Made by a program: the position numbers and the translations under genes. The notes beneath the pieces are model-generated. The model worked only from the letters and a program-made list of their open reading frames with translations. It had not been told where the DNA came from and did no database searches. This document shows positions 18,878-22,870 of a stretch of DNA of 64,000 nt, piece by piece. This DNA is from an uncultured Gammaproteobacteria bacterium (GTDB lineage: Bacteria; Pseudomonadota; Gammaproteobacteria; CAWCPV01): contig CAWCPV010000005.1 in assembly GCA_963797555.1 (NCBI GenBank), positions 1 through 64,000 of the forward strand, written 5' to 3'. The stretch's first letter is position 1. Each line of letters begins with the position of its first letter.

Positions 18878-20483
18878 ATGATCACCGATCGATTCCGCCA
18901 ACTGGTGCTGATTCTGTATGCCGTCTCCGTATTCTCGCTGCTGGCCGCCTTCGTCTCGGGGAGCTACCTGCGACACCGCACGGAGGAGAAAGAGCAGTTG
19001 GTGGACCTGGTCCGGGAGACCGATGATTTATTCACGACCTTGGTCACCGGGCAAACGGAGAAGCTGGAGGCATTACTCAAGGTCCTCTCCATGGACGCGC
19101 AGATCCTCACCGCTTTCCAGCACAGGGACCGGGCGGCATTGTTCGGAGAAGTGTCGCCCCTGCTCGCCTGGCTGAGACACCGGCAAGGCATCACCCATCT
19201 CGATTTCTTGGATAACGATCGCAAGGTTCTCTTGCGCGTCCACCAGCCGGACCGGTATGGAGATCGGATCGACCGCCTCACGCTGCTGCAAGCCGAGCTG
19301 CACGACAGGGTCGCCGCAGGACTGGAACTCGGACCACTGGGAACCTTCACGCTCCGCGTCGTGACGCCGTGGCGCAAGGATGGACGCCTTATCGGCTATG
19401 TCGAGCTCGGCGAAGAGGTCGACCGCCTCCTGAAGCGCGTCAACGACGTGCAGCACGTCGAAGGACTGCTGTTTATCAAGAAGCGCTACCTCAATCGCAG
19501 TGATTGGCTGGCGGGCATGACCATGCTGGGGCGTGCCGGCCAGTGGGGATCGATTCCCGCAAGTGGTGCTGAGCGCAGTCACCGCCACCGGCCTGCCGGA
19601 GTCGGTACTGCGTCTGGCCGCGCAGGCTTGCGTCGGCGGTGGCGGACGGAGCGACCGGATCACCGCGGACACCAGGACCCTGCTCACTTCGGCCATCCCG
19701 TTCCCCGATATCGGAAAGCGCCCGGTGGGCTGCCTGTACTTGGTCATCGACCTCACCAAGCAGCGGGCCGGAGACCTGAGGTTCCTGTCCGCGTTGACAG
19801 CTCTGGGCGCGGGTATTGGACTGCTGATGTTCGCGGTGTTCTACTTCATCCTTGCGCGTGTGCGGTCCAGACTGGTCTTTGTCGAGCAGGATCGAGCGGC
19901 GTTGCGGAAGATGGCATCGCGCGACGCGCTGACCGGCCTCTATAACCGCCGGCATCTCTCGGACATGCTGGAACATGAACTGCTCGCCTGTCGTTCGCAA
20001 GAGCGTCCCCTTTCGCTGCTCATGGTCGATCTCGACCATTTCAAGCGAATCAACGACTCGTTCGGTCATCCCTGTGGCGATAAAATGCTGGTGGCCGTGG
20101 GGCAGGCAGTGCTCGACGAGCTGCGCGACACCGACCGGGCGGTGCGGTACGGGGGCGAAGAGTTCCTGATTCTCCTGCCCGGGTCTTCGGTAATGGCGGC
20201 CATGGAGGTGGGCGAGCGCCTGAGGGCCGGCATCGGAGCCCTGGCCATCCCGTGCTCGGAACAGGCGAGAGCCAGCGTGACCGCCAGTATCGGCGTAGCG
20301 TCCTTTCCCGACGACGCGCAGACGGCGGACACGCTTCTCAAGCTTGCCGACGACGCGCTCTACGTTGCCAAGTCATTGGGCCGCGACAGGGTCGGCCGTC
20401 CCCGCATGGCGGGTGACCCACCCCACGCCGGTTCCCCCCGCGACCGTGGGAAAGGGTTGCAGGCCGCAAGCCGGCGCCGTTAG
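18878..20483 (+). CDS. Membrane diguanylate cyclase with periplasmic Cache-like sensor domain (frameshift near 19545)
   Basis: Two TM helices flank the sensor (LRVHQPDRYGD, GLELG); DALTGLYNRR, DLDHFKRIND, RYGGEEF. Confidence 0.85.
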
Positions 20484-20575
20484 CGCGGCGGATCGGCGCG
20501 GTCGCGGCCCAGGTCTCATCCCTCGACTCTGTTCCACCGCGCCCGCAAACCACGCACCGGCCGGCCGAGTTCGGC

Positions 20576-21142
20576 CCTAACGCCTGCGAGGGTCGGCGAG
20601 CCTGTCCGTGCCGCGAGGCCGTAGATTCCCTCCGGGTTGGAGGAGTTGGGGCGGGGAAGGACTAAACTCTTAACGTGAAAGAAACGGGTTTTTGGGCGTG
20701 AAGGGGCCTGGCCGATGAAGGCCGTGGCGGGGAAGGTGAAGTGTTCAGGCTAGGGCGGGAAGGAAGCCGTAGCGCGTCAGTGCCTTGATCCAGCGTGGGG
20801 CGTTGCGTTTAACGGACAGAGCTTCATAGTTGATAACCGAGTCCCGGTAGTGTTGGCCACGCGCGAGCAGGAAGAAGATAGTCCGCTTGTCTCCCGTCGA
20901 AATACACTCAGAGGTGGGAGACGGCGGATGCCTGGACCGAATGAGCCTGAAGGCGGCAAGCCGCCGACGGCCTTTTTAACGTGCGCTCTCTATGGAAGCA
21001 ATCCGGGGTACGAGTCGGTCCGGCGGGTCACGTTAGGTTGCGGGGTCGAGCCGCCAAAAACTTGCGCGACCTCTCCCCGCCGCCTCCCACCCCGGAGTAT
21101 CTTTCATCATCGGGGGTGGCGCCAGACGCAATGATCGTTAGG
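20576..21142. other. Structured non-coding element (candidate ncRNA or non-autonomous mobile-element end)
   Basis: No credible ORF; terminal inverted repeat CCTAACG/CGTTAGG; several nested hairpins; GGCGGG(G)AAGG three times. Confidence 0.45.
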
Positions 21143-21147
21143 CTCAT
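21028..21147 (-). other. Short 39-aa ORF or disrupted gene start
   Basis: Strong RBS GGAGGAGAGAG before the ATG at 21147, ~55 nt below a sigma54-like promoter; the frame runs into the non-coding element. Confidence 0.4.
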
Positions 21148-21201
21148 GTGCTCTCTCCTCCAGGATGTGTGATGGCCCGGGTAGCTTCCGCGAGTGAAGC
21201 A

Positions 21202-21217
21202 GCACAGACCGTGCCAG
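21202..21217 (-). promoter_or_regulatory. Sigma54 (-24/-12) promoter-like site
   Basis: Minus strand CTGGCACGGTCTGTGC: TGGCACG with exact GG-N10-GC spacing. Confidence 0.55.
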
Positions 21218-21526
21218 CAGGGACGATGCACGCCGATCAATGGCTTGCCGCTTTTCGGCGGTGGGCACTGGTCGCCCCTGCACGCTCGCCGCACGGGATA
21301 GGCCGAGTCAGGGCGCGAGGCCGTATTCACTCTTGGCCCCGCACCGGGGCAGCGCCCAGCAAAGCGCGCGTGTTGCGAGCCAGCACTCCGATGCGCACGA
21401 GCGGTGGTAGGTCCCTGCGAGACGACCCCCGGTCAGCGGCATGACCTGCTGGCGCCCGCCGGCACTTCACGCCCACAGGCTTCCGATTCGGGTACACTGG
21501 CCGCCTCGCCCCGACCAGACGGCCCG

Positions 21527-22870
21527 ATGATGACCACTCAGGCTTACGAGCAAAGACGCCAGCGGCTGATCGACGCTGTCCGCAAGGAACGGGGCGCGGT
21601 GCGTCTTGCCAAGGACACCTCGAACCTGTTCCGCGAACGCACGCAGGTGGCGGCGCACAAGCTGGACGTGCGCGAGTTCGACCACGTCCTGCGCGTCGAC
21701 GTGGAGCAAGGCTGCGTAGAAGTAGAGGGTATGACGCCCTATTCGGGGCTGGTGACGGAATGCCTGAAGTACGCCGTGATGCCCACCGTGGTGCCGCAGC
21801 TCAAGTCCATCACCATCGGCGGGGCGGCTGCCGGATGCGGCATCGAGGCGTCGTCGTTCAAGTACGGTCTCGTGCACGAGACTGTTCGAGAGATGGAGAT
21901 TCTGCTGCCCGACGGGCGCAGCGTGGTCTGTACTCCGACGAACGAGCACAAGGACCTGTTCTTCGGCTTTCCCAACTCCTACGGCACGCTCGGCTACGCC
22001 TTGAAGCTCAAGGTCAGAGTCGTGCCGATCAAGAAGTATGTGAAGCTCACCCGTCTGCGCCACGGCGACCCCAACGCATACTTCGCCGACCTCGCGCAAC
22101 AGTGCGCACGCGAGGATGTCGACTTCGTGGACGGCGTCGTGTTCGGCCGCGACGAGATGTACATCAACCTCGGGCAATTCTCGGACACGGCACCCTTCAC
22201 CAGCGACTACACCTTCGAGCACATTTACTACCGGTCCATCCGCGAGCGCGCCGAAGATTATCTCGTCACGGAGGACTACATCTGGCGCTGGGACACCGAT
22301 TGGTTCTGGTGCTCGAAGAACCTGTTTGCCCAGAATCCCATCGTCCGCCGCCTATACGGCCCCAGGCGGTTGAACTCCGTCACCTATACCAAGATCATGC
22401 GCTGGAACAGCCGCTGGAAAATCACGCATTATCTCAATCGGATGCTCGGCATTCACGCCGAATCGGTGATCCAGGACGTGGAGATTCCCGTAAAGCGCGC
22501 TGCGGAGTTTCTGGCGTTCTATCACGAAGTGATCGGATTTATGCCCGTCTGGATCTGCCCAACCCGCCCTTACGACCGTAACGCCCGCTTCGATCTCTAT
22601 CCGATGGATCCCGATACCTTGTACGTCAATTTCGGATTCTGGGACGTGATCCGCGGGCGCGAGAGGCTGCCGGAAGGCTATTACAACCGCCGACTCGAGC
22701 ACCAGGTGACGGAGCTCGGTGGCATGAAGTCCCTATACTCGGACTCCTACTTCACCGCGGATGAGTTCTGGCGCATCTACAACAAACCCGCCTACGACGC
22801 ACTGAAAGCCAAGTACGACCCGGACGGCACCTTGAGCGAACTATTTGCCAAATGTGTGGAGCGCAAGTAG
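21527..22870 (+). CDS. FAD-binding oxidoreductase, VAO/PCMH family (TmsA/BfaA-like, DHCR24-related)
   Basis: VRLAKDTSNLFR, VVPQLKSITIGGA, GIEASSFKYG, FPNSYGTLGY, WRWDTDWFWCS, KSLYSDSY. Confidence 0.8.
   Translation: MMTTQAYEQRRQRLIDAVRKERGAVRLAKDTSNLFRERTQVAAHKLDVREFDHVLRVDVEQGCVEVEGMTPYSGLVTECLKYAVMPTVVPQLKSITIGGAAAGCGIEASSFKYGLVHETVREMEILLPDGRSVVCTPTNEHKDLFFGFPNSYGTLGYALKLKVRVVPIKKYVKLTRLRHGDPNAYFADLAQQCAREDVDFVDGVVFGRDEMYINLGQFSDTAPFTSDYTFEHIYYRSIRERAEDYLVTEDYIWRWDTDWFWCSKNLFAQNPIVRRLYGPRRLNSVTYTKIMRWNSRWKITHYLNRMLGIHAESVIQDVEIPVKRAAEFLAFYHEVIGFMPVWICPTRPYDRNARFDLYPMDPDTLYVNFGFWDVIRGRERLPEGYYNRRLEHQVTELGGMKSLYSDSYFTADEFWRIYNKPAYDALKAKYDPDGTLSELFAKCVERK

Follow-up and report, generated by a model that had tools for sequence, protein, structure and literature searches.

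What is the structured DNA at positions 20576-21142 of a 64,000-nt stretch from an uncultured gammaproteobacterium (contig CAWCPV010000005.1, positions 1 to 64,000; this whole stretch is called the window below)? A first-pass annotation, made from the letters alone, had described the segment as free of open reading frames (ORFs) and proposed that it is either a novel non-coding RNA (ncRNA) or an RNA module of IS110 type without its recombinase, with a group I intron and an attC site split by an insertion as alternatives. Our analysis indicates with high confidence that positions 20670-21141, read on the minus strand, are a copy of an insertion sequence (IS) of the IS110 group which was stripped of its DEDD/serine recombinase gene by a single internal deletion of 1,080 bp. 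The odd 0.5-kb "structured, ORF-less" stretch is then explained as a defective IS110 copy, a result useful for annotation. Its parts, defined in part by comparison with L105, a full-length relative from a metagenome, are as follows:

20670-21141, minus strand: whole element, a 472-bp internally deleted IS110-family insertion sequence, delimited by own-genome copies, environmental contigs and the L105 alignment
20887-21141, minus strand: left end (LE) of 255 nt, intact as far as 1 nt before the recombinase start codon; gene of a structured RNA of bridge-RNA type
20886-20887, minus strand: deletion junction, 1,080 bp absent (L105:631-1710), from the L105 comparison and loose contig ends
20745-20886, minus strand: recombinase gene remnant, 1 nt, then 46 codons (RTIFF...GFLPALA), then the stop (20747-20745), from translation
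20670-20744, minus strand: right end (RE), non-coding, 75 nt, with the terminus TTTCACGTTAA
20576-20669, no strand: flank outside the element, with CCTAACG (20576) and GGCGGGGAAGG (20650), into which no copy or contig reaches

Identity and boundaries of the element

The genome that includes the window (G000; 20 contigs, 84.6% complete) was searched with window positions 20484-21530, which gave 35 matches. These form two blocks, A (20670-20879) and B (20889-21142), lying about 1.1 kb apart in several places, and between them, opposite to the window plus strand, are ORFs matching PF01548 (DEDD_Tnp_IS110) and PF02371. The orientation of this recombinase puts the element on the minus strand, so that block B corresponds to the LE and block A to the 3′ end of the gene together with the RE. 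Full-length copies of 1.55 kb with a DEDD/IS110 recombinase occur at other G000 loci. The first-pass annotation had suggested a search for copies beside IS110 transposases; several matches indeed flank PF01548/PF02371 ORFs, and its core idea, IS110-family non-coding sequence with a guide-RNA module and no recombinase, held. It had, on the other hand, taken the segment for the 3′ end of an IS110-type element, and the RNA module is instead the 5′ LE, upstream of the deleted recombinase gene on the minus strand. It does not constitute a new class of ncRNA either, as had also been proposed; it derives by deletion from a multi-copy IS.

The recombinase domains are present in the full-length copies and in L105, and the window copy, which retains only the last 46 codons, is defective. 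An intact G000 protein of 406 aa matches the IS621 and ISCro4 transposases in PDB (E = 6e-10 and 3e-11, respectively) and its IGLDV, MEST and KTDxxDA motifs (first D, E, D..D) align with theirs.

Six own-genome copies aligned with their flanks diverge exactly at ...|CTAACGATCATTGCG and TTTCACGTTAA|... (termini CTAACG... / ...CACGTTAA), which places the window element at 20670-21141. Orthologous elements of other genomes have the same termini. The flanks of the six copies differ from one another and TAA is found at both junctions, the insertion pattern of the IS110 group; TAA also stands at both junctions of the window element, where the position of the crossover within C-TAA is ambiguous. The termini CTAACG... 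/ ...CGTTAA give rise to a 3-bp repeat, CGT/ACG, around TA. With its long non-coding LE (255 nt), short RE (75 nt) and very short sub-terminal inverted repeat, the element has the end layout of the IS110 group as drawn from the available part of PMC11208160, which describes the layout of the IS1111 group as reversed relative to it.

Profile searches with nhmmer agree with these limits. A profile of 52 orthologous LEs matches the window with E = 2.2e-77 over model positions 1-254 of 262 and an RE profile with E = 2.2e-15 across 20773-20670; neither finds a match in 20576-20669. The left boundary of the element is thus 20670 rather than the 20576 of the first-pass annotation, since copies and contigs stop at 20670 and at 21141-21143 and the profiles miss 20576-20669. 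For the same reason, the terminal pairing that it had drawn between CCTAACG (20576) and CGTTAGG (21136) joins a 7-mer outside the element to the true LE terminus. The possibility that 20577-20669 represents a degraded LE (plus strand) or an old RE (minus strand) was rejected, as the two profiles find nothing there.

Two repeats are shared by the flank and the element. CCTAACG occurs three times in the window, counting both strands: at 20576, at 21031 (in a guide segment, see below) and at 21136 (the IS terminus). The 11-mer GGCGGGGAAGG occurs twice only, at 20650 (20650-20660, outside the IS) and at 20726 (within the RE). The outer copies, CCTAACG at 20576-20582 and GGCGGGGAAGG at 20650-20660, sit 10-94 nt beyond the right end of the IS and are probably due to chance.

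The internal deletion

L105 (element at 375-1927, with an intact 406-aa ORF) is the closest full-length relative, with 95.7% identity to the window LE and 93.1% to the window 3′ part. Compared with it, the deletion starts 1 nt ahead of the ATG and extends to the third base of codon 47, counted from the gene end, and the junction, 20887|20886, shows no microhomology. The 46 remaining codons are near-identical to the C-terminus of the L105 ORF. The description "ORF-less" therefore applies to the LE and RE and fails for the 142 nt of recombinase remnant at 20745-20886. As the window copy makes no recombinase, it cannot move autonomously.

Contigs of four public sequencing runs, two of DNA (X1 and X3) and two from RNA libraries (X15 and X17), were compared with window positions 20300-21500; the shares obtained in the sequencing-run search were small, at most 0.19. 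The contigs cover 20670-21143 only, with loose ends at 20669/20670 and 21141/21143, and nothing in the four runs falls on 20300-20668 or 21161-21500; in X15 there is in addition no contig on 20670-20924. At the deletion site, loose contig ends (X1, X3, X17) run into the recombinase start at exactly 20887 and into the 3′ part at exactly 20886. In X3 the two half-element contigs have similar depths, 39.1 and 29.6. No contig of the four runs spans 20886/20887, an absence which in itself proves nothing. Among metagenome contigs, a 22-mer of the LE is found in five, with the full LE in L105 and L106 only, and a 22-mer across the junction has no exact match in that collection. Within G000 the junction is present in one copy. 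Two X1 contigs (20887-20972 and 20943-21043) show zero differences from the window LE over the parts they cover, so that decay has had no time to show.

Structure of the left-end RNA

Thirty-four LEs, consisting of the window copy, two other G000 copies and 31 orthologues, were aligned and a consensus was obtained with RNAalifold. The consensus fold is nested: helix P1 encloses P2, the unpaired segment ss1 and P3, and P3 in turn encloses P4, P5, the unpaired segment ss2 and P6. The paired regions are:

21076-21089, minus strand: helix P1, 5′ strand, partner of 20915-20928 (11 pairs, 7 with compensatory changes)
21049-21071, minus strand: hairpin P2, with two registers about equally supported
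21015-21024, minus strand: helix P3, 5′ strand, partner of 20930-20940 (10 pairs, 3 compensatory, e.g. UA to CG in 12 of 34)
21003-21013, minus strand: hairpin P4, small, no compensatory changes
20984-21000, minus strand: hairpin P5, small, 1 pair with compensatory changes
20945-20971, minus strand: hairpin P6, 10 pairs, 6 compensatory, containing GGCGG-CAAG-CCGCC
20930-20940, minus strand: helix P3, 3′ strand, partner of 21015-21024
20915-20928, minus strand: helix P1, 3′ strand, partner of 21076-21089

The LE is the gene of a conserved structured RNA encoded on the recombinase strand. Changes on both sides occur at 19 of the 45 consensus pairs (92 cells of the alignment). In all, 95.9% of cells pair on the consensus structure, compared with 35-46% once the partners are shifted by 1-3 columns, and none of 500 shuffles reaches the observed values for four of five measures. 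The window copy forms all 45 consensus pairs, and the 65 columns that are invariant across the alignment are all intact in it; it differs from the LE of the main G000 family at 17 positions, 15 of them in unpaired columns. Folded alone, the window LE adopts the same architecture (z = -2.6; 3 of 200 shuffles fold as well).

All 20 motifs listed in the first-pass annotation are present where it had placed them, although only some of the stems that it drew belong to this fold. GGCGG-CAAG-CCGCC is the tip of the covarying hairpin P6. GGTCG/CGACC corresponds to an alternative P2 register in which two of the five pairs have compensatory changes and the others none. The consensus partner of GTCTCCC is the GGGAGGCGGCGG strand at 21076-21089 and not GGGAGAC. 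The two remaining pairings, CCACCCC/GGGGTGG and TAACGTG/CACGTTA, show no compensatory change, are broken in 7-11 and 5-9 of the 34 sequences, respectively, and are not superior to shuffles. CC(N)GAUGAUGAAAGA and the CCACCCC that precedes it (21099-21113, minus strand, about LE positions 29-42) are near-invariant across the family and lie outside any supported helix; they might constitute a promoter or a protein-binding element, and they also give rise to matches with C/D-box snoRNA models at chance level.

Guide-like segments

Two segments left unpaired by the consensus fold resemble the left guides of a bridge RNA:

21031-21038, minus strand: ss1, ACCUAACG, left-target-guide-like, composed of two variable nt, CUAA and CG
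20976-20983, minus strand: ss2, CACGUUAA, left-donor-guide-like, identical to the RE terminus

Both covary with the DNA. For ss1 we used a family table of 72 unique insertions. In 71 of the 72 the C or U that precedes UAA agrees with the DNA, and the two nucleotides 5′ of CUAA agree with the left flank in 52 of 71 cases at position -1 and 31 of 70 at position -2. Shuffling gives means of 22.7 and 15.7, respectively, and none of 5000 shuffles reaches the observed values; this global shuffle ignores host base composition, for which positions -3 to -5, where there is no signal between ss1 and the left flank, serve as an internal control. ss2 varies together with the RE terminus across the family: CACGTTAA, CACATTAA and CACGCTAA are each found in both, and AATGTTAA is found opposite CATGTTAA, which makes three variants with full agreement (GT, AT or GC before TAA) and a fourth at 7/8. 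Among 65 elements the agreement is 8/8 in 38, 7/8 in 26 and 6/8 in one. In the window copy both segments are identical to those of the main G000 family.

In the nomenclature of the bridge RNA papers, to judge from the portions available (PMC11208160, PMC11208158), ss1 corresponds to the left target guide and ss2 to the left donor guide. We infer from this that the LE RNA acts as a bridge RNA. Since ss1 and ss2 carry the sequence of the top strand, pairing would be with the bottom strand.

The target that emerges is short, effectively only about NN-CTAA, which fits the large number of different sites at which a given IS type is inserted (in one Methylomarinum assembly, for example, 24 for a single type). 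On the right side, no RNA segment complementary to the donor was found beyond the invariant TAACG, the target flanks show little conservation, and the palindromic donor junction (CGTTAACG) makes the assignment of a right guide less clear. By eye, neither the 4-nt linker that follows P6 nor the loop of P2 nor the 3′ tail pairs consistently with the right flanks.

The Methylomarinum assembly (loci L076-L102) carries one IS type in at least 24 insertions, whose flanks are barely conserved beyond G-CTAA. Tandem arrangements occur among them. The RE of L094 is followed after 1 nt by the next LE, and L090 and L092 also have a second LE close by.

Other copies in the genome and in other bacteria

Compared with the main G000 family, the window copy has 93% identity in the LE and 83% in the 3′ part. 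In five of the seven G000 copies that include the site (C5:191255, C10:12950, C14:153149, C14:367908 and C16:195013) an extra A (GAAGGCG instead of GAGGCG) splits the recombinase ORF within the DEDD domain. It may reflect an inactivating mutation that these copies have in common, an artefact of the assembly, or a frameshift that is read through. C5b is 99.9% identical to C10 and C14b, which do not differ from each other; these three and C14a are found at different loci and have different flanks.

Both copies that lack the extra A (C3:306807 and C3:590183) have a damaged LE. One of them, C3:589092-590468, has the sole intact 406-aa ORF found in the genome (C3:589170-590390; L017:280-1497, minus strand) and lacks LE positions 1-180, the part that bears both guide-like segments. 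In the other, C3:303876-307863, a 2,461-bp insertion flanked on each side by GCCGTC interrupts the LE just after ss2. This insertion is probably another IS and bears an ORF of 535 aa on the opposite strand. An in-frame loss of 33 nt, also present in C14:152685-154206, leaves the copy C3:303876-307863 with a recombinase ORF of 395 aa. Three further remnants have other internal deletion junctions (C3:253692-253891, C6:96397-96913 and C20:44566-45064), which shows that the IS decays by deletion in G000. One copy, C14:366817-368373, appears to have inserted inside another transposase gene (L003:1716-2489), whose product seems to resemble an ISL3-family transposase.

Elsewhere the family comprises 79 orthologous loci, mostly in Beta- and Gammaproteobacteria, with 72-81% amino-acid identity, several of them with intact recombinases of 406-412 aa. 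An order-level genome search returned only the genome of the window itself and no relatives. In a plasmid collection searched by distant blastn no record reached 80% cover of the IS and none named an IS; the best, a Comamonas plasmid, had 75% cover at 68.9% identity.

Origin and possible activity of the element

One internal deletion in a full-length IS110-group copy would leave the arrangement observed here: an LE, the 3′ remnant of the recombinase gene and an RE. In such a copy ss1, which comprises the left target flank plus CTAA, and ss2, which comprises the RE terminus plus TAA, would be the left guides of a bridge RNA. As both recombination ends and the RNA gene are kept, excision, insertion or the supply of guides could be possible if a recombinase acted in trans. 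A different origin can be imagined for the same arrangement, namely a chimera in which a solo LE and a solo 3′ end were joined by recombination between copies or by nested insertion, and the unequal identity of the two halves to the main family (93% and 83%) would be in keeping with it. We consider this very improbable: both halves match one full-length lineage, that of L105 (95.7% and 93.1%), the X3 contigs have similar depths (39.1 and 29.6), and the halves are collinear, on the same strand and abut without foreign bases. The readings that would detach the segment from the IS altogether, an independent structured ncRNA, a fragment of a group I intron or an attC site split by an insertion, draw on the local motifs of the first-pass annotation only and can practically be dismissed. 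Full-length IS homology accounts for every base of 20670-21141, and the supposed attC termini are those of the IS. At E ≤ 10, Rfam gives chance-level matches only: three in 20300-21700 (E 2.2-3.6), none of them relevant, with those to snoRNA models stemming from the conserved GAUGAUGA motif. No intron family matched even at that threshold, and of the P7-like motifs that had suggested an intron, one (20660) is in the flank and the other (20874) in the recombinase remnant.

Other observations weigh against our own interpretation of the element as an IS110-group copy with a bridge-type RNA gene. Of the canonical guides, just one half is demonstrated: no complementary segment was found for a right target guide, and when the variable positions of the right donor were scanned by mutual information against every RNA column (53 LE types), no complementary partner appeared. 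The nested fold that is predicted differs from the tandem stem-loops of IS621. A scan for promoters and terminators found no sigma-70-like promoter site in or upstream of the LE, and one terminator-like site where 0.7 are expected. At the gathering score, Rfam recognises in the window one tRNA only, located elsewhere. Contigs from RNA libraries do cover the LE (X15, 20925-21142; X17, 20942-21093), and these may derive from DNA or from full-length copies of other organisms.

The second question is whether the deleted copy is still a functional unit. It could be a live, non-autonomous element akin to a MITE (miniature inverted-repeat transposable element), made of a guide RNA and the two ends, which is moved by the recombinase of another copy and/or whose RNA is used in trans; we regard this as unlikely. 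In its favour, the copy has both termini, all 65 invariant LE columns and all 45 pairs intact, and its ss1 and ss2 are the same as those of the main family of the genome, where the sole copy with an intact 406-aa ORF lacks LE positions 1-180. The near-identity of the extra-A copies C10, C14b and C5b at different loci suggests mobilisation in trans, a mode of action for which the IS621 bridge RNA (in the part of PMC11208160 available) and the recombinase-only IS110s of about 800 bp (in that of 10.64898/2026.08.14.744561) offer precedents. Against it, the junction exists in one copy of the genome, short of the several copies that characterise MITE-like elements; no contig of the four runs crosses the junction and its 22-mer has no match in the metagenome contigs. 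The common frameshift could be an artefact of assembly or consensus, intact copies may be unseen in a genome 84.6% complete, and the window copy belongs to a lineage different from that of the resident recombinase (LE 93%, 3′ part 83%). Presence as a single copy, together with three further remnants bearing other deletions, favours an inert remnant. The window copy is most likely a recent and inert decay product of deletion-prone IS turnover in this genome and not a selected module.

A broader version of the live-unit idea, that the IS110-type system of G000 as a whole runs as split components with the window unit as its live guide RNA plus ends, seems doubtful to us. The guide-bearing LEs would then be those of the five frameshifted copies and of the window unit, and the recombinase would come from the copy at C3:589170-590390, which has lost the 180 nt of its LE that bear the guides. 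Under it, the near-identical frameshifted copies C10, C14b and C5b would be the trace of mobilisation in trans, the left target guide of about 6 nt in a nested fold would account for the loose CTAA targeting, and the window unit would mirror the recombinase-only IS110s reported recently. The finding also has a modest wider value. It provides a natural gene of a bridge-type RNA with both recombination ends and no recombinase, in a genome whose sole intact recombinase gene has no guide region of its own, so that trans-complementation among IS110 copies becomes testable. The family (at least 79 loci in Beta- and Gammaproteobacteria, and G000), with two covarying left guides, a very short target guide and right guides that were not detected, could moreover inform the amount of guide that a bridge recombinase needs.

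Genomic setting

The element is flanked on one side by a GGDEF diguanylate cyclase gene (19533-20483, plus strand) and on the other by a gene with a FAD_binding_4 domain, encoding a FAD-binding oxidase (21404-22870, plus strand). The G+C content of the element region is about 0.58-0.66, compared with 0.69-0.75 in its surroundings. Directly upstream of the LE, at 21146-21162 (minus strand), GGAGGAG is followed after 7 nt by an ATG. When the flanks are joined via a single CTAA, the reading frame from this ATG stops within a few codons and no disrupted gene is evident.

Comparison with known systems

The best reference is IS621 of E. coli, a member of the IS110 group, whose bridge RNA was described by Durrant et al. 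2024 (PMC11208160) and Hiraizumi et al. 2024 (PMC11208158); what follows relies on the available portions of both papers. The recombinases belong to the same Pfam DEDD and serine recombinase families and show direct similarity (PDB 8wt6). In both elements the LE is long and the RE short, long terminal repeats are absent, and one short core recurs at the two junctions. In both, the LE encodes, upstream of the recombinase gene and in the same orientation, a structured RNA with one segment that carries the left target plus core and another the left donor plus core, both covarying with the DNA. There are also clear differences. The window copy has no recombinase gene, and the family recombinase has 406 aa compared with 328 residues in 8wt6_A. 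The core region is (C)TAA in the window and CT in IS621. The left target guide of the window family is only about 6 nt long (2 variable nt plus CUAA) whereas that of IS621 has 9 nt, and this brevity implies loose targets. A right guide, whether for target or donor, was not found in the window family, and the predicted fold is nested, in contrast to the three tandem stem-loops of IS621.

Narrow literature searches, in sources seen in part, yielded no description of a deletion derivative that keeps only the bridge RNA. The closest recombinase-less derivative described is MITEPpu9, or orphan ssr9, of ISPpu9 in Pseudomonas putida, for which movement with a transposase supplied in trans has been proposed (PMC12288879, available portion). 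Like the window element it is a short derivative of the IS110 family that keeps the IS ends and an RNA gene. It differs in being present in 8 copies in KT2440 and in encoding the small RNA Ssr9, while the window unit is single-copy with an LE of bridge type.

The separation of components is also known from the opposite side. Recombinase-only IS110s of about 800 bp, without a 5′ untranslated region (UTR), have been reported, and their authors infer that the bridge RNA acts in trans (10.64898/2026.08.14.744561, in the part available). According to the same part, that study required at least 95% of the coding sequence and so excluded remnants without a recombinase. The G000 copy C3:589092-590468 is of this recombinase-only kind; the window element shows the reverse, with the RNA and the ends kept and the recombinase gone.

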